The notes beneath the pieces are model-generated. The model did no database searches. It was not told the origin of the DNA and saw nothing but the letters and a program-made list of their open reading frames with translations. From a virus (taxonomy: Duplodnaviria; Heunggongvirae; Uroviricota; Caudoviricetes), in the IMG/VR virus record IMGVR_UViG_2718218135_000001, positions 49,251 to 113,250 of that record: a stretch of 64,000 bases of DNA. The stretch is one strand, 5' to 3'. Position numbers and translations under genes: made by a program. Positions 22,018 through 51,900 of this stretch are shown here, in pieces (the first letter of the stretch is position 1; each line of letters starts with the position of its first letter).

Positions 22018-22078
22018 GCAAATGGTTAAAATATGATATAAACACGCCATCCCGATTTGACTTTTCATGGAGGAAAAC

Positions 22079-22402
22079 ATGTCGAACGAGATGGCGGGAG
22101 TCACAACTGAACAGGTTGAGCGCATCGTCTCAATCGTTGCTCGGGAAGTCGTAGGCAAATTAGGTAAAGAAATACGCGAGGAAATTGGTCAGGAGGTCAA
22201 TGACCAGCTCAAAACCTACTTTGGCGATATGACGCCCGCACAACACAGCATTCAGCACTCCAATCTGGACAAACTTCTTAACCGGCTCGACACCATCTCC
22301 AGTGGGTTCTTTGGCGGCATTGTTTCGAAACTAACGTCGTTCATTATTACCGTACTGCTTTTAGGATTGGCCGCGTATGGCGTAAAAAATGGATTGCAAT
22401 AA
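22079..22402 (+). CDS. putative holin-like membrane protein
   Basis: GGAGG RBS; single C-terminal transmembrane segment (LTSFIITVLLLGLAAYGV); first gene of lysis-region operon. Confidence 0.3.
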   Translation: MSNEMAGVTTEQVERIVSIVAREVVGKLGKEIREEIGQEVNDQLKTYFGDMTPAQHSIQHSNLDKLLNRLDTISSGFFGGIVSKLTSFIITVLLLGLAAYGVKNGLQ

Positions 22403-22415
22403 CAGGAGATCAAGG

Positions 22416-23108
22416 ATGAAAACTCCGAGAGGCATTCGTAATAACAACCCCGGTAATCTTGATAAAGGAGCGCCGTGGCAGGGCTTAGTCAACAACTCTT
22501 CAGAACCGCGCTTCTGCACGTTTAAAGACCCCGTGTGGGGGATTCGGGCATTGGCAGTGACACTCATTACTTACCACGACAAGCGCCGCGCAAAAGATGG
22601 CTCCAGCATTGATACGATCCGCGAAGTCATCGAACGCTGGGCGCCTCCACATGAGAACAACACTTTGGCTTATGTGAACGAGGTATCCAAAGCCGTTGGA
22701 GTAGCACCAGATATGATTATCGATCTGCATGACTACGAGACCTTAAGACCGCTGGTAGAGGCGATCATTAGACATGAAAATGGCCGAGGTCCGCTGAAAA
22801 CCCCCAATAGCTGGTATACACCAGAACTTATCGAAGAAGGGCTGCGACGTGCCGGCATTGTCAAACCGGTAAAGGCTGTAAAAGCCGTTCCTGTAACAAA
22901 AGAAACCACAGGTGCTACAGTCACTGCAGGTATTGGCCTTGCACAAATTGCTGACGTTATGCCTCAAGTTTCTGCCGCAATGGATAAAGCGCAAGGCAAT
23001 ATCTCCAGTGGAGATACGGTACGCATCATCTTTGGCGTAGCTACCATTCTTGTGGCAGCATTCATTGCCTGGTCCCAGGTTCGCAAGCACCAGAAAGGAT
23101 TAGTATAA
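22416..23108 (+). CDS. putative endolysin / cell-wall hydrolase (family not recognised)
   Basis: Position between holin-like gene and spanins; conserved-looking GIRNNNPGN motif; C-terminal hydrophobic segment; CAGGAG RBS. Confidence 0.3.
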   Translation: MKTPRGIRNNNPGNLDKGAPWQGLVNNSSEPRFCTFKDPVWGIRALAVTLITYHDKRRAKDGSSIDTIREVIERWAPPHENNTLAYVNEVSKAVGVAPDMIIDLHDYETLRPLVEAIIRHENGRGPLKTPNSWYTPELIEEGLRRAGIVKPVKAVKAVPVTKETTGATVTAGIGLAQIADVMPQVSAAMDKAQGNISSGDTVRIIFGVATILVAAFIAWSQVRKHQKGLV

Positions 23109-23110
23109 GT

Positions 23111-23362
23111 ATGTTCGACGGCCTGTTGTTCAAAATGAAATCCGCTTTGTTCACTCTGGCCGCCGTCATTCTAGTCCTTGTCGGCGCATACTCCTATGGC
23201 GGGTATATGGCCAGACGCAGTATGGAAGAGAAAGAACGGCGGGAAGATAACAAGCGTCTTCAAAGCACAGTGGAAGTGGTGAATGAGACGAACAGTGAAA
23301 TACGTCAGAAAGATGCTTCTGCCATTCATCGTGAGCTGCATGATAAGTGGGTGCGTAATTAA
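23111..23362 (+). CDS. i-spanin (Rz-like)
   Basis: N-terminal TM helix then charged coiled-coil region; lipoprotein ORF embedded in +1 frame. Confidence 0.5.
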   Translation: MFDGLLFKMKSALFTLAAVILVLVGAYSYGGYMARRSMEEKERREDNKRLQSTVEVVNETNSEIRQKDASAIHRELHDKWVRN

Positions 23363-23498
23363 GCCACAGACCACCAGCGTGTTGTTCTGCGATGGCGCTG
23401 AACCTATTTATATCAGCAATGACGATGTAATGACCGAAGAAACCGAACGCCAAATCCTTTTTCACAATACGATGGGAGAGAGAGTTTGCGGTTGGTGA
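23283..23498 (+). CDS. o-spanin (Rz1-like outer-membrane lipoprotein)
   Basis: Lipobox ISGC in signal peptide; starts inside i-spanin gene in alternate frame (true start may be the internal Met at 23313). Confidence 0.5.
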   Translation: MRRTVKYVRKMLLPFIVSCMISGCVIKPQTTSVLFCDGAEPIYISNDDVMTEETERQILFHNTMGERVCGW

Positions 23499-23530
23499 TG
23501 TCGAAGTTCCCCTCAAATGAGGGGGACACA

Positions 23531-24052
23531 TTATTCTTCGAACAATTTTTCGATAGATTTTGTTGGATAGAACAAAGAACGATCGTTGTTACCAACCAGC
23601 TGGATAAAGCCCAAACTTTTATAAAACGCCCTAGCTTTATCGTTCAACGCCTCAACGAAAAGCCCATGAATGCCTACCGCAAGAGATGCATTGTACACAA
23701 CACGCATTGCGTGAGTTACAAGCATTGAGCCAAACCCCTGACCTTGAAGAGATTTGTCCAAAGCCAGTCTGCCTAAAGTGATACTTGGGACATTCCGATA
23801 AGGCACTTTCTTTTGCTGACTCTTTGAAGGTAAGGTTTCTTTCTCAAAGCAGCTGCCTGACAAAGTGTAATAACCTAATACCTTTGGTATTTCTTCTTTA
23901 GTGCAAAGCACATAAGCGCGAAGAATTTTTCCTTCATGCTGTCTTTTTAAGTGGTTGGTCAAAAATGCGTTTAGTGACTCTTCGCCGCAATCAAAACCGT
24001 TTAGATCATAATCTTTCTCTCCAGAGAAAATCTCGATCGTCGTATTGCTCAC
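23531..24052 (-). CDS. GNAT-family acetyltransferase toxin (TacT/ItaT-like)
   Basis: GNAT motifs (QGQGFGSMLV); GTG start 7 nt after upstream DUF1778-type ORF with GGAG RBS. Confidence 0.65.
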   Translation of the reverse strand: MSNTTIEIFSGEKDYDLNGFDCGEESLNAFLTNHLKRQHEGKILRAYVLCTKEEIPKVLGYYTLSGSCFEKETLPSKSQQKKVPYRNVPSITLGRLALDKSLQGQGFGSMLVTHAMRVVYNASLAVGIHGLFVEALNDKARAFYKSLGFIQLVGNNDRSLFYPTKSIEKLFEE

Positions 24053-24059
24053 GAGTAAA

Positions 24060-24329
24060 TTACTCCATGCTTTTCAGACGATTGGCAGCTCGTTTCAGCT
24101 TGTCGTTCGGTGCCGGAGGATTGCTTATAGCATCCATAACCAGATTCCAGGACTCTTCACTTAGAACCAGTCTACGGTGTTGCTCTATCACCTTCACGGC
24201 ACGTTCGGATGCACTGCTAACCATGAACTGGGTAATGCTCTGGTTAGACATTGCGGCAGCTTCCTCGATGATGCTTTTATCGTCATCGGTTAATCTCAAA
24301 TCGATGCGCTGCTTTTTCAGTGCGGACAT
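24060..24329 (-). CDS. DUF1778-type (RHH) antitoxin
   Basis: 89-aa protein MSALKKQRIDLRLTDDDKSIIEEAA... typical of GNAT-toxin partners; upstream of and co-directional with toxin. Confidence 0.65.
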   Translation of the reverse strand: MSALKKQRIDLRLTDDDKSIIEEAAAMSNQSITQFMVSSASERAVKVIEQHRRLVLSEESWNLVMDAISNPPAPNDKLKRAANRLKSME

Positions 24330-24340
24330 GTGTACCCCCT

Positions 24341-24367
24341 GATGGCCGGTGATGTAGGAAGGCCATC
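24341..24367. promoter_or_regulatory. palindrome in toxin-antitoxin promoter region (candidate operator)
   Basis: GATGGCC-N13-GGCCATC inverted repeat 12-38 bp upstream of antitoxin start. Confidence 0.4.
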
Positions 24368-24598
24368 ATTGCTCTCTATTTAAACTGAGTTTTCGACTCA
24401 AAGGTTATTTAACTGGGCTATAGCCCATTGCGTATGTGTCATCAAATTGTGTACGGCAATTTACCGTACTCGTAATATAGAGGTGATTGTCACTTTTTTC
24501 AACAGACAAATGAAAACAGTTACTAGCAATAGGCAATAACAACCTACTAAATAACCTTTACACCGCAGCCGTAGGCATTTAGGCTATATCGCATATAA

Positions 24599-24614
24599 GA
24601 AAACAAGTTGTTTC
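24599..24614. promoter_or_regulatory. conserved intergenic motif B copy (GAAAACAAGTTGTTTC)
   Basis: Palindromic AAACAA-N-TTGTTT element about 35 bp upstream of parA-like start. Confidence 0.5.
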
Positions 24615-24648
24615 ATACGACAATAATTCACGCAAAGGAAACTCACCA

Positions 24649-25314
24649 ATGACCAAGATCATTGTGGTTGGCGGCACAAAAGGCGGCCCAGGCAAATCTA
24701 CCGTTGCCCAGCAAATTGCGGTATGTCTCAAAGTTAAAAAGAAAAAGAAGGTTCACGTCACCGATATCGATATCCAGCGCACCACGACCAGCTGGTGTGA
24801 AGACCGTCGCCAGAACGAAGATCTTGAACTGATCCCGTTCGCTTATGTGCAGGACGACATCGTCAAACATCTTAAATCGCTTCAGGGGCGAACTGATTAT
24901 GTAGTGGTAGATGCTGGTGGCTTTGACTCCGAAATTCAGCGTCTGGCGATGCTTATGGCTGATGTAATCATCATCCCGCTGCGCCCTAAACGTCGTGATT
25001 TGAAATCTCTGCGTGATATCGACCCGATTATCGACAACGTTCGCAATGTGAACGAGAAAGTTAAGATCCGCGCGGTAATAAACCAGTGTCCGTCATTGCC
25101 TTCCCAGGTATCACGTATTCTGGCCGCGAAGGAAATTGTCGAAACTTTCGGCATCGAGGCTGCGCCGGTCAATCTGTACAACCGTAACGTTTATGACGAT
25201 GCGGAAGAGGCAGGTCGTTCTATCTTTGAAATGACTGGCGCTGAACGCGATAAGAAGGCAGAAGCCGAGTTCGAAGAGTTTGTAGATTACATCTTGAGTC
25301 TGGAGGAAGAATAA
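24649..25314 (+). CDS. ParA/ParF-type partition ATPase
   Basis: Deviant Walker A GGTKGGPGKST at N-terminus; 221 aa; followed by small basic protein. Confidence 0.7.
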   Translation: MTKIIVVGGTKGGPGKSTVAQQIAVCLKVKKKKKVHVTDIDIQRTTTSWCEDRRQNEDLELIPFAYVQDDIVKHLKSLQGRTDYVVVDAGGFDSEIQRLAMLMADVIIIPLRPKRRDLKSLRDIDPIIDNVRNVNEKVKIRAVINQCPSLPSQVSRILAAKEIVETFGIEAAPVNLYNRNVYDDAEEAGRSIFEMTGAERDKKAEAEFEEFVDYILSLEEE

Positions 25315-25673
25315 TGTCCATGAGAATGGGAGACCTTGCAAAGCGCAATGAGCCTAAAGAACCGGCCAAAAGCAGCACTCCACTGCGCCAGCCAGTCAGA
25401 CCGCAGGGGCGTCCGACTCGTGGCAAAGAGAAAATTAAAAGTCGCACAATGTCACTGGAGGACGAATACTTCGAACTGCTGGAAATGATGAAGTTCATCC
25501 CTCGTTTCGAGAAGTTCACCCGTTCTGACGTGATTCGCGCCGCCATTTTCCATCTGGCAGAGAAGTCACCGCAGGAAATCGAGGACATCGTGAAACTTAA
25601 CGAGGCGATCACAGCTGCCGATGTCACGATGCGTACCGATGAAATCAAACGAGAGTTGATGAAGAAAGGTTAA
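25314..25673 (+). CDS. putative partition centromere-binding protein (ParG/ParB-like partner)
   Basis: Small basic ORF translationally coupled to ParA-type gene (GGAGG RBS, ATG overlaps stop). Confidence 0.4.
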   Translation: MSMRMGDLAKRNEPKEPAKSSTPLRQPVRPQGRPTRGKEKIKSRTMSLEDEYFELLEMMKFIPRFEKFTRSDVIRAAIFHLAEKSPQEIEDIVKLNEAITAADVTMRTDEIKRELMKKG

Positions 25674-25725: not shown

Positions 25726-26493
25726 TTATGCCGCGCTAACACTATGTTCATTCCTAACCACCCCAACCTTCACAAAAGGGCTGCCGTAGCTTGGTGGCTT
25801 CTTGATTAATTTGCCTACATACAGTTTTCTAATATGCTCATCGGCTATTCTGCCAACAAATTCATAACGTTTTGTGTCGGGGCCAAGAGCTATATCCCTT
25901 GTAAAGTACTGCTGAGAACCGGCTTTGACCCAGCATTCAATCTGATAAACTTCCATTATCAGGCCCCCATATGTAGCGTAGGCATATTTGAGATTCTCGT
26001 CTCTTGGAACCTTTGCCCATACGCCACGCGTAGCTTCATATAATGCCAGAGCGGACATTCCTGACTTGTAGGTGCTGTTTAGCAGGAAGGCAAGACCGGC
26101 GTGCTCAGGAGCAATTTCAGTTTCCTCTTGCAGCACTAAGTGATGGTAGGCGTCCAGTGATATTCTGCCCATCATGGAACCACTTCCTCGTACCTTATTC
26201 GTAAGCTCTCCGACACCCATAAGGTCGATGCATGTCGCCTCAACAAGTTTGGCTGTGGTTTCATCCATACCATGACGAAGAATATCTATGCCTAATTTTT
26301 TATTAGCCAAAAGTTCTTTGATCCGCATGGATTTGGGAGAGTCATCGGGATACTTGATGTGATCGAGACAACGAGTCGATTTGCCTTTTCCTATGTAAAA
26401 CGGTCTTTTCATCTTGTCTTCTGTATCATAGAGACAGTAAACATAGTATTTAGCCTTATCCAATGATCTCGCGTATACCGATAAATCGTCCAT
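25726..26493 (-). CDS. GIY-YIG domain protein (free-standing nuclease candidate)
   Basis: N-terminal YYVYCLYDTEDKMKRPFYIGKGKSTR resembles GIY-YIG motif; about 150-aa C-terminal domain of unknown type. Confidence 0.45.
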   Translation of the reverse strand: MDDLSVYARSLDKAKYYVYCLYDTEDKMKRPFYIGKGKSTRCLDHIKYPDDSPKSMRIKELLANKKLGIDILRHGMDETTAKLVEATCIDLMGVGELTNKVRGSGSMMGRISLDAYHHLVLQEETEIAPEHAGLAFLLNSTYKSGMSALALYEATRGVWAKVPRDENLKYAYATYGGLIMEVYQIECWVKAGSQQYFTRDIALGPDTKRYEFVGRIADEHIRKLYVGKLIKKPPSYGSPFVKVGVVRNEHSVSAA

Positions 26494-48937: not shown

Positions 48938-51900
48938 ATGAAGGCTCTGATGGTCAGAACTGACTTCTCCCTGGGAGAGTCAGCTCTAAAAGCAGAAAAC
49001 GCGGTGAAAATCGCGAGAGACGCTGGCTACACCGCTGTCATTTCCGCTGACAGCATGAACATTGCCAGTGTGATCCCCCTGCAGCGTGCCGCTGGCGACG
49101 ACATGGCGGTTATTTGTGGTGTTAAGCTGAATGTGGTCGACGATCCGACATACGAGCATCGCGCCCGCCTGGCGAAAGAGTCAGGAGGATGTATGGAATC
49201 ATTGGTGCGTGATCGAAGCTACTGCTTCACGGCACTGATAAAGAATGAGCAAGGTTATCGCGACGTGTGCGAACTGATGACCTTAGCCAACAAGCGCGAG
49301 CAATTCTACTTTGTTCCGCGTCTGGCACTTGACCAGCTGGCGGCCGCATATGCCAAAGGCAACATCATCCTGCTGACGTCCGACATTGGCAGTGTATTCC
49401 AGCGCCGGGACTTCGCAAAGATTATCGGGACGCTGGTGACAGCTGGAGGACGCGATAACTTCTACAGCGTGGTTTATCCGCACCCTACCCCATTCTACGA
49501 CCAGATTAACGTCCGGGCGATGAAAGTGGCGAGCGCACTGAAAATAGAGCCAGTGGCGTTCTATCCCGCTTATTACGAAGCGATCGACGACGCTGACATT
49601 AAAGACATTGCGCACATGGTTACGAACAACATCAAAATCGACCAGCCGCATCGTCTGCGCATCCCCCACCAGCGAGATAACGCTGTTAATGGTCGTCGCC
49701 ATCTCCTTGAAGCGCTGAAAGCCTTCTCCGTTCGCATGGGCGTACCGGTAACAGCTGCAATGGTCTCAACAACGCAGGACACCATTATTGAAGCCTGCAC
49801 ATGGCGCTGGCATGAACTGCCACCAGCACTGCCCAAGATGGCAGACGACGAGCCTGCAACGCTGATGAAGCTGGCTGTCGCGGGGCTACGCAAGCGTCTA
49901 ACTACTAAAGAGTTTGGCTACACACCACCGGCTTCTGAGCACCGAGTGTATGTTGAGCGACTGAAGTACGAAATGGACACACTGACCCGTCTGGGCTTCT
50001 GTGGCTACTTCCTGATGGTACGCGATCTGATGAATCACAGCCGTGAAACAGGAATACCGGTTGGGCCAGGTCGTGGTTCCTCTGCCGGTTCTCTGGTGGC
50101 GTGGTGCATAGGCATAACCAACGTCGATCCTATCCGTCACGGTCTTCTGTTTGAGCGTTTCATCAACCCTGAACGTCTTGACTTACCGGATGCGGATCTG
50201 GACTTCAGCCAGGCACGTCGTCATGAGGTGATCGAGTATCTGAATGAACACTATGGCGAAGATTACGTTGCCGGTATTCCAAACTTCACCTATCTGGGCG
50301 CCGCTTCTGCGCTGCGAGACACTGCGCGTATTTACGGTGTCGACGCTGCGGATATGTCGGTATCCAAAGAGTTCAAGAATCTGGAAGACGATAGCCTGTC
50401 TCTGGAAGAGCTGCGCGAGCAACTGGCCAGCCTGGACAAATACGCCACGAAAAACCCGGAAGCGTTCAAAGCGGCGTGTAAGCTGCAAAGCCTGATGCGT
50501 GGTTTTGGTCGTCACGCTGCGGGGATGATCGTCGCTGGCGTTCCACTGGTAGAGCGCACGCCCGTCGAGCTGCGTGGCAACGCTCGCTGTATTGCGTTCG
50601 ATAAACGTTACTGCGAGGCGATGGGGCTGATTAAGCTGGACGTTCTCGGTCTGGCAACGCTCGATCTGCTGGATAGCGCGAAACGCTACATCAAAGAGAG
50701 TACCGGGGAAGACATCAATCTCGATGCTATTCCACTGGACGATCGTAAGGTTCTGGATGGGTTCGCTGCAGGGTACACGCAGGGCGTATTCCAGCTGGAG
50801 TCCGGCCCCATGCGCAAGCTGCTTAAAGATCTGGGCGGTGGCATTGAGCCAATGAGCTTCAAAACCGTTGTCGCCACGACCGCACTCTTCCGACCTGGCC
50901 CGATCCAATCCGGCATGTTGGACGACTATGTCTCCGTGGCCAAAGGCTTCATGGCTCCACATTCAATTCATCCGCGTCTTGAGGAAGTCACCCGGGAGAC
51001 TAATGGTGTTTTGCTCTATCAGGAACAAATCATGCAAAGTTCCCGAGTACTTGCCGGGTTCTCTATGGCCGAAGCAGACGCTCTGCGTTCCGCTATCGGT
51101 AAAAAGAACATGGATAAGATGAAAGCGATCGGCAGCGATTTTGTAGAACGAGCACAAGCAGGCTGGGTGACACTGTCACTCAAAAATGGAGGTACTGTAG
51201 AGGTTCACAAACACGCAAAACTGGATTGCTCAGACGGTAAGCGTAGAAGCTACAGCGAGGCTATTAGTGACGGCATAGACTACGTGGAGATCGTCTCTGA
51301 ACAAGAAGGTCTCAGTAAGGAAAAAGCCCAAGAAATATGGGACGCCTTTGAGAAGTTCGGTGGATATGCCTTCAACAAATCACACAGTGTTGCTTATTCT
51401 TTAATCAGCTATCAGTCTATGTGGTTAAAGACACATTACCCTGCTGAGTTCTTCGCTGCTGCGCTCACCATTCTGGGCGAGGATAAGCACCAGGGGCTGG
51501 TTAAGGATGCGCTGACCTATGGCATTCGCGTATTGCCACCAGACGTTAACGTGTCATCTAACCGAATTGAGATCCGCACGCTGGAAGACGGCAGTCAGGT
51601 TCTGTATGCACCATTCTCTGCTGTGAAAGGCTGCTCTGAGAATGGTTGCCAGGCCATCATGAGAGCGCGTGAGAAAGTTGGCGGCAAATTCGAGTCACTT
51701 GAGCAATTTGAGGAAGCGGTCGAGAAGCGTGCATGTAACAGCCGGGTACGCGAATCACTGCAAAAAGTCGGTGCGTTCGCATCGATTGAGTCTGGCAGTC
51801 TGCCAGCGACAGATCCGGAACGGCTGCGCGACCAGGCAGAGTTGATGGGTAATCTGGTGATCGACGCTGTAAAAGCCTCTCGACCGTTCGAGATGAACCC

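Follow-up and report, generated by a model that had tools for sequence, protein, structure and literature searches.

An AtaRT/KacAT-type toxin-antitoxin operon carried by an SSU5-like phage-plasmid, with a predicted structured leader

Introduction

What is the pair of small genes that lies, on the opposite strand, between the lysis genes and the partition locus of this phage genome, where is its transcription controlled, and what does it do for its carrier? The pair encodes a GNAT acetyltransferase-type toxin and a ribbon-helix-helix (RHH) antitoxin of the DUF1778 family. It was found in a 64,000-nucleotide (nt) stretch of Caudoviricetes DNA (positions 49,251 to 113,250 of IMG/VR record IMGVR_UViG_2718218135_000001), here called the window, to which all coordinates refer. 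An original prediction, made from the letters of the window alone, had recognised a toxin-antitoxin (TA) module and had taken a palindrome close to the antitoxin gene for its operator. The reading presented here, to which we give a probability of about 0.75, is that the pair is an intact type II TA operon of the AtaR-AtaT/KacA-KacT clade, that it is cargo of an SSU5-like phage-plasmid with plasmid addiction as its likeliest role, and that the palindrome is a hairpin of the mRNA leader.

Results

The pair belongs to the AtaRT/KacAT clade

The coding features of the module are as follows (aa, amino acids; SD, Shine-Dalgarno).

24060-24329, minus strand: RHH antitoxin (DUF1778/TacA1), AtaR/KacA homologue, 89 aa (Pfam, PDB search)
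23531-24052, minus strand: GNAT toxin, AtaT/KacT clade, 173 aa, GTG start (Pfam, PDB phmmer, alignment)
24335-24339, minus strand: antitoxin SD sequence, GGGGG, 5 nt before the ATG (from sequence; aligns with GGAG/GGGAG in relatives)

The open reading frame (ORF) listing showed the antitoxin gene first and the toxin gene directly downstream on the same strand after a gap of 7 nt, the arrangement of a bicistronic operon, and near-identical RefSeq plasmids carry the same two gene calls. The toxin was assigned to the GNAT family by Pfam (Acetyltransf_1/7, E 4e-8, above the family cut-offs), and the antitoxin to TacA1/DUF1778 (E 3.5e-26, residues 8-86). When all PDB chains were searched with phmmer, the toxin matched AtaT (6GTS, 6AJM) at E 3.7e-79 and KacT (5ZGN, 5XUN) at E 2e-76, whereas the other solved GNAT-toxin chains scored E 1e-21 or weaker; among these weaker matches were 5FVJ and 7BYY, which we take to be TacT and ItaT. 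The antitoxin matched KacA (E 2.5e-41) and AtaR (E 5.2e-40) in full-length alignments. Since both proteins score best to AtaT/KacT and AtaR/KacA, the pair was placed in clade A of Bikmetov et al. (PMC9177977), whose tested members AtaT, KacT and AcaT acetylate Gly-tRNA and tRNAs charged with hydrophobic residues.

In a global alignment the toxin was 68.8% identical to AtaT over residues 1-172, with no indel. Its acetyl-CoA motif, Q103-G-Q-G-F-G108 (QGQGxG), is in register with that of AtaT. Among the residues on which AtaT toxicity depends, Y144, G108, L27, F30, H34, R37, S76, K77, S78, K81, K82, Y85, R95 and L136 are kept. Mutagenesis of AtaT identified Y144 as catalytic and G108 as needed for acetyl-CoA binding, and showed that mutations of Y85, R95 and L27 also abolish activity (PMC7595197); every one of these five residues is present in the window toxin. 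Most of the clade-specific contacts to the tRNA acceptor stem are kept as well, including S76, K77 and S78, despite the changes K79Q, R40E and R71K. The antitoxin is 75% identical to AtaR. It keeps R8, D10 and R12, the residues with which KacA reads operator bases in the KacAT-DNA crystal (PMC6698736), together with M65 and I68, and has K77 as in AtaR.

The original prediction of a GNAT-DUF1778 module on the strand opposite to the lysis and partition operons, to be doubted if the toxin lacked its catalytic residues, is thus borne out by the Pfam and PDB matches, by the ORF listing and by the alignment to AtaT. Its label "TacT/ItaT-type" is right for the superfamily but not for the subfamily.

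The operator is predicted at the promoter

Two control elements were located upstream of the antitoxin gene.

24451-24469, no strand: operator GTACGG-N7-CCGTAC, predicted antitoxin-toxin binding site (matches the arms of the KacAT crystal operator)
24502-24474, minus strand: sigma-70 promoter, TTGAAA (-35), 17-nt spacer, TATATT (-10) (promoter scan, 10/12 matches)

The DNA duplex crystallised with KacAT, AAATGTACGGTTATTAACCGTACATGA (27 bp), contains a palindrome that spans the transcription start (PMC6698736). The corresponding site of the window, GTACGGCAATTTACCGTAC, is the sole exact GTACGG-N7-CCGTAC in the 64 kb, and no such site arose in 100 shuffles. The same motif was found upstream of ataR of E. 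coli O157:H7 (GTACGGTGACATACCGTAC), of an IncF-plasmid paralogue, of the allele type carried by Escherichia phage Cyrano, and at two E. coli plasmid loci (L005 and L006; L numbers denote our loci). Across chromosomal antitoxin loci from various genera of Enterobacterales it is exact in 41 of 42, the lone exception having a 6-nt spacer. Relatives keep the arms unchanged but differ in the AT-rich spacer, and the motif stands anywhere from 14 to 165 nt before the ATG.

Within the intergenic region TTGAAA-17-TATATT is the one good match to a sigma-70 promoter on the minus strand, and its -10 element ends 4 nt before the operator. This arrangement recurs: the consensus gTTGAAa, 17 nt, TATAnT, 4 nt, operator was obtained from 59 distinct promoter-operator sequences representing 89 loci. 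Homology and comparative evidence together identify GTACGG-N7-CCGTAC at 24451-24469 as the predicted operator of the module. Transcription is inferred to begin at about 24467, so that the operator would span the predicted start. The interval originally proposed for the module, 23531-24367, covers both ORFs but stops short of these elements at 24451-24502.

A second promoter, TTGAGT-17-TAGAGA, between the operator and the palindrome discussed below, was considered and rejected; it is a poor match and is not conserved in the Cyrano-type allele. Two variants of the operator region were seen in IMG/VR. Loci L097 and L099 carry, downstream of an intact operator, a second, degenerate operator-like copy, GTACAAAAGCAGGCCGTAC, with the same ACAATTTGA flank, which suggests a local duplication. 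In L067 (IMG/VR_UViG_2802429232_000004) the left arm reads GTACAG instead of GTACGG, and the rest of the last 150 nt before the ATG is that of its allele group; the change may be a sequencing error or may mark a naturally derepressed variant.

The module is exchangeable cargo of an SSU5-like phage-plasmid

The surroundings of the module are given from left to right.

22067-22402, plus strand: holin-like gene, left of the TA pair
22389-23108, plus strand: endolysin gene, left of the TA pair
23111-23362, plus strand: Rz spanin gene, left of the TA pair
23283-23498, plus strand: Rz1 spanin gene, left of the TA pair
23481-24551, no strand: variable cargo slot with the whole TA cassette (blastn of the window versus SSU5)
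23506-23527, no strand: G+C-rich hairpin with a 9-bp stem and 6 G-C pairs (terminator-like site in scan)
24649-25314, plus strand: ParA ATPase gene, right of the TA pair
25314-25673, plus strand: gene for a 119-aa protein in the ParB position, right of the TA pair

When the window was compared with SSU5 by blastn, homology stopped at 23480 (79.6%) and restarted at 24552 (93.5%), and between these boundaries SSU5 carries two unrelated hypothetical genes. The TA cassette is therefore a 1.07-kb exchangeable cargo in a defined slot between Rz/Rz1 and parA. The cassette comprises the hairpin at 23506-23527, both TA genes, the leader, the operator and the promoter. The hairpin sits just inside the slot boundary, in the gap between Rz1 (stop codon at 23498) and the convergent toxin gene (stop codon at 23531), and is likely the shared terminator of their transcripts.

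The TA region is 90% identical to that of phage Cyrano, where the same two genes are annotated as "KacT acetyltransferase-type toxin" and "putative antitoxin", and at least 99% identical to the corresponding region in 45 E. coli plasmids of PLSDB. In that database the module was found on 144 plasmids, 130 of them non-mobilisable; the sizes among those listed are mostly ~105-115 kb, some larger. On the near-identical RefSeq plasmids the two genes are labelled "GNAT family N-acetyltransferase" and "DUF1778 domain-containing protein", and are surrounded by phage tail and lysis genes, a DnaB-like helicase gene and phd/doc. The identity to Cyrano and to these plasmids, together with the surrounding phage genes, indicates that the window belongs to an SSU5-like E. 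coli phage-plasmid, in agreement with the extrachromosomal prophage that had been proposed. The claim that the element carries two independent TA systems was also upheld: phd (30685-30912, minus strand; Pfam PhdYeFM, E 6.6e-13) and doc (30308-30685, minus strand; Fic/DOC, E 8e-9) form the second.

Several neighbouring genes deserve mention. The protein encoded at 25314-25673 has no Pfam match and falls in a PHROG of unknown function; its Cyrano homologue is labelled "RelE/ParE putative toxin", which looks like a misannotated small centromere-binding protein. Just beyond, at 25726-26493 on the minus strand, a 255-aa GIY-YIG-domain protein is encoded (Pfam LEM-3_GIY-YIG, E 5.5e-7) that matches PD-T4-3 in PADLOC (E 1.3e-23), and the partition locus thus has accessory and defence cargo on both sides. 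A chaperone-usher fimbrial operon starts beside phd-doc, with a fimbrial protein in the window (31091-32221, minus strand, onward), and is continued by usher, chaperone and YehD-like subunit genes on the near-identical plasmid NZ_CP122497; such an operon is unusual cargo for a phage genome.

Plasmid maintenance is the likeliest role

Among 48 viral contigs of IMG/VR that encode an antitoxin 84-100% identical to that of the window, 46 have a ParA homologue within 3 kb. This synteny, the residence of the module beside parAB on a low-copy extrachromosomal prophage, and the precedent of GmvAT of the Shigella plasmid pINV, which helps to maintain that plasmid vertically alongside partition systems and further TA modules (PMC6519299, PMC8923223), are the reasons why post-segregational killing is favoured. 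The allele, with parAB and phd-doc, probably aids stable inheritance of SSU5-like phage-plasmids.

Many type II TA systems act by abortive infection, and defence could be the primary role here too: an incoming phage would exhaust the labile antitoxin or block host transcription, and the freed toxin would halt translation before the cycle of the invader ends. The module does lie in a variable accessory slot of a temperate phage, and the PD-T4-3-family gene is found on the other side of parAB; a survey reports PD-T4-3, along with other defence systems, from SSU5-group phage-plasmids of E. coli and Shigella (10.1101/2025.09.12.675607). Against this, neither the toxin nor the antitoxin matched any of the 5027 defence profiles of PADLOC-DB v2 at E 0.01 or better, and no report of phage defence by an AtaT/KacT-type pair was found in our literature searches. 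Moreover, the tight synteny with parA suits maintenance equally well or better. We therefore regard defence as an unlikely primary role, although the two functions are not mutually exclusive.

The host chromosome raises a different question. Chromosomal ataRT was found at 1627 places among 5426 complete E. coli genomes (~30%), with ~65% DNA identity to the window pair, the same operator and an antitoxin 75% identical; 1925 ataRT-matching records fell in only 1854 genomes, so about 70 strains have two or more loci of the family, mostly on separate replicons. Because operator arms and RHH reading residues are identical, cross-repression between host and phage-plasmid copies is predicted, and by analogy cross-neutralisation is plausible; in Klebsiella, neutralisation between chromosomal and plasmid GNAT-RHH pairs was observed (PMC9431474). 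The module might thus be neutralised or domesticated in most hosts by chromosomal AtaR, or the reverse, and serve as an anti-addiction element or as neutral hitch-hiking cargo. This appears still less probable than defence. The two genes are intact, with at least 99% conservation among the 45 plasmids, distinct TA alleles fill the same slot in many phage-plasmids, which argues for selection, and Salmonella TacAT paralogues do not cross-react, as cited in PMC9431474.

Plasmid addiction by an active AtaRT/KacAT-type pair remains the preferred reading, and the following points weigh against it. Where a host has chromosomal ataRT, that copy could cross-neutralise its phage-plasmid counterpart or cross-repress it, and so weaken addiction. 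Four positions that contact tRNA or line the pocket in AtaT are changed in the window toxin (A26S, R40E, R71K and K79Q, the last also occurring in KacT), and these changes could alter the range of tRNA targets. The transcription start on which the operator placement leans is a predicted one, and this allele itself appears uncharacterised.

The palindrome is predicted to be a hairpin of the mRNA leader

The region between the operator and the antitoxin start codon contains the following features (MFE, minimum free energy).

24329-24454, minus strand: structured mRNA leader of ~125 nt, operator to start codon (covariance-model match)
24414-24427, minus strand: leader hairpin HP1, UGGGCUA/UAGCCCA (folding; helix 1 of the covariance model)
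24386-24400, minus strand: leader hairpin HP2, UGAGU-cgaaa-ACUCA (MFE and centroid folds)
24340-24368, minus strand: leader hairpin HP3, the palindrome, 8-bp stem and 13-nt loop, 3' arm abutting the SD (folding, covariation)

The palindrome GATGGCC-N13-GGCCATC had been described as an operator in the promoter. It is present, and each arm is in fact one base longer, giving a perfect 8+8 inverted repeat, TGATGGCC-N13-GGCCATCA; a search for GATGGCC-N8-20-GGCCATC returned one site in the window and none in 100 shuffles. However, it does not lie in the promoter but about 100 nt downstream of it, between the predicted transcription start and the SD. On the mRNA strand it reads UGAUGGCC-uuccuacaucacc-GGCCAUCA, followed by GGGGG (the SD), UACAC and AUG. 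Folding of the single sequence gave HP3 together with HP1 and HP2 in both the MFE and the centroid structures.

At the HP3 position, relatives whose leaders are about as long also have a hairpin, but its arms differ in sequence:

Window and Cyrano type: GATGGCC / GGCCATC
Enterobacter soli, Huaxiibacter, Lelliottia: GACCGCCC / GGGTGGTC
Morganella: GACCATTT / AAATGGTC
IncF plasmid: CTGACCGTTCTT / AAGAGTGGTCAG

To avoid circularity, a covariance model was built from seven leaders of other loci with all window-type sequences left out. It found the window leader at 24329-24454 on the minus strand (46.4 bits, E 2.3e-7) as its sole match in the 64 kb. In the model-based alignment of 12 distinct leaders, 94.5% of cells pair and 12 of 16 pairs are changed on both sides. 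No shuffle among 500 reached the observed values, and sliding the partner by 1-3 columns lowered pairing to 18-48%. In the HP3 helix 96% of cells are paired and 8 of 10 pairs show double, compensatory changes; for HP1 the figures are 91% and 4 of 6. Owing to 23 G·U cells, pairing is 94.5% on the mRNA strand versus 83% on the opposite strand. HP2 lies outside the structure of the model, and on inspection relatives have equivalent stems of other sequence. The HP3 loop measures 13 nt in the window allele, one more than the 12 nt of the Cyrano type.

Three points weigh against this reading of the leader. The covariation alignment was fitted to the model, so the pairing counts just given are inflated. 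With a plain MAFFT alignment of the 12 leaders and the structure derived from the window, pairing was 57.8% and a slide of -1 scored equally; inspection attributed this to a register error of one column between the window group and the others, which the model-based realignment mended. Thirdly, partition-function estimates of SD accessibility with and without HP3 shifted inconsistently in six homologues and thus lend no support to simple masking or unmasking of the SD by HP3.

Variable arms, wobble pairs and variable spacing are unexpected for the operator of an invariant RHH protein, and the palindrome therefore behaves as an RNA stem. As far as sequence comparison can tell, it is the third hairpin of a transcribed leader and not the operator. 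That it is instead a DNA site, either a second antitoxin site or one for another phage or partition protein, seems very improbable: it is a perfect inverted repeat, unique in the window and near the antitoxin start, and symmetric DNA sites can likewise evolve symmetrically, but the antitoxin has the reading residues of KacA and AtaR, whose GTACGG-N7-CCGTAC site exists upstream, the arms vary among relatives that keep these residues, G·U-type changes break the symmetry of the DNA, near-identical alleles differ in the spacing of the arms (12 versus 13 nt), the hairpin recurs at chromosomal loci that have no ParA nearby, and the position is ~100 nt downstream of a conserved promoter.

Other explanations of the leader were discarded as well. 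HP3 is not a partition site in this analysis, given those chromosomal loci and its place inside the exchangeable cassette. As an intrinsic terminator on either strand it fails, its loop being too large, the mRNA strand having no U-tract, and the terminator scan having left it unflagged. The leader of the window contains a 14-codon ORF, but this lacks an SD and, on inspection, is not kept in relatives, which speaks against a leader peptide. A hairpin next to the SD throughout the family was also rejected: one is visible on inspection in many leaders, but shuffles gave equally long stems for about half of 55 distinct leaders; the claim is accordingly limited to the leader family found by the covariance model. 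That family is common to the window phage-plasmid, an E. coli IncF plasmid and chromosomal ataRT-like loci of Salmonella, Enterobacter, Lelliottia, Huaxiibacter and Morganella. An E-value-mode scan of 23400-24700 against Rfam gave three chance matches only (E 5.5 or above, far below gathering scores).

The loop of HP3 (24348-24360, minus strand) is partly conserved though the stem is not, also in L011, L017, L021, L025, L043, L097 and L099; what is conserved is UUCCU in the 5' half, which is rich in pyrimidines, and a 3'-terminal AUCAC. RNAalifold, run on the mis-registered alignment, paired the loop CUUCCU with the SD (AGGGGG/GAGGAG) in 12 of 12 sequences. The loop could be an anti-SD element, a standby site for S1 or the ribosome, or a coincidence. 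Loop-SD pairing as the main fold, whether as an anti-SD switch or as a pseudoknot, was rejected: with no linker nucleotides on either side, such pairing would exclude HP3, and it is much weaker than the G+C-rich stem of that hairpin.

Another allele group at the same slot (L007, L086-L096) has tandem repeats between operator and SD, with a copy number that varies by contig. Examples from IMG/VR phage-plasmid contigs are L095, with 19.6 copies of the 14-nt unit AAACTGAAACCTAG at 2672-2947, and L087, with ~6-12 copies of a 7/14-nt unit of the AAAACTG type at 2852-2948.

Discussion

The kind of system described here is known: structures and mechanisms are available for homologues 69-75% identical to the window pair, and identical sequences, one of which bears the label KacT, are deposited in RefSeq and GenBank. 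AtaR-AtaT of E. coli O157:H7 (PDB 6AJM, 6GTS; PMC7595197) has the same gene order, sizes and operator arms. In contrast to the window pair, ataRT lies on the chromosome, flanked by panM and livJ, and its leader is short, with 26 nt separating the operator from the ATG; in the window the operator is 121 nt from the ATG, the leader has three predicted hairpins, the toxin starts with GTG, and the pair is borne by a phage-plasmid. KacA-KacT of Klebsiella pneumoniae (PDB 5ZGN; PMC6698736) shares the operator half-sites and the length of the 7-nt AT-rich spacer, and its operator spans the transcription start, as is predicted for the window. KacAT, however, is a chromosomal pair whose leader is short (30 nt in K. 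pneumoniae ATCC 13883), and no leader hairpins are described in the KacAT literature examined. GmvA-GmvT is a GNAT/DUF1778 pair on a large low-copy plasmid, a setting like that of the window pair (PMC6519299, PMC8923223), but GmvT is a Gly-tRNA-specific toxin of clade D (PMC9177977), distant in sequence and not phage-borne. TacA-TacT of Salmonella and ItaR-ItaT of E. coli share the RHH-DUF1778 plus GNAT architecture and the N-acetylation of aminoacyl-tRNA; their toxins, of clades D and B with other tRNA specificities (PMC9177977), are much more distant.

From these homologues we infer how the operon, in the order promoter, operator, structured leader of ~125-140 nt, antitoxin, toxin, would work. 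The promoter at 24502-24474 would drive a bicistronic mRNA. The antitoxin would dimerise through its RHH domain, and its C-terminal half would wrap the toxin, blocking acetyl-CoA binding and toxin dimerisation. A T2A4 hexamer with conditional cooperativity is expected by analogy, given the 69-75% identity to the crystallised complexes; its N-terminal RHH dimers would bind 24451-24469 over the transcription start and repress the operon, and an excess of toxin would destabilise this operator complex. That the toxin starts with GTG while the antitoxin has a strong SD would fit a design that keeps the antitoxin in excess. Once the antitoxin is lost, a toxin dimer would use acetyl-CoA to acetylate the alpha-amino group of charged tRNAs, and translation would stop; by homology within clade A, Gly-tRNA and tRNAs carrying hydrophobic amino acids, including initiator Met-tRNA, would be the targets. 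Post-segregational killing of this kind may stabilise the plasmid state alongside parAB and phd-doc.

HP3, directly 5' of the SD, would most plausibly tune mRNA stability or antitoxin translation, and our best guess is that the leader acts as a 5'-proximal stabiliser or as an insulator of the ribosome-binding site. More tentatively, and with greater doubt than belief, the three-hairpin leader might be an uncatalogued cis-regulatory RNA that sets antitoxin translation or mRNA half-life, and hence the toxin:antitoxin ratio, through HP3 and its loop.

As a TA module the locus is routine, adding an AtaRT/KacAT allele that is widespread on SSU5-like E. coli phage-plasmids. The corrected operator matters for experiments: designs for electrophoretic mobility shift, reporter and repression assays belong at 24451-24469 and not at the SD-proximal palindrome. 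Since operator and RHH reading heads are shared with the ataRT of ~30% of E. coli genomes, cross-regulation between host and phage-plasmid becomes testable, and strains with two or more AtaRT-family loci offer a natural setting for it. The leader RNA is the only fresh element of the locus. In a subset of this TA family the leader is structured, shows solid covariation and has no counterpart in Rfam, and it could be a new, small cis-regulatory RNA; if true, control through the leader would be a post-transcriptional layer not described for GNAT-RHH systems.

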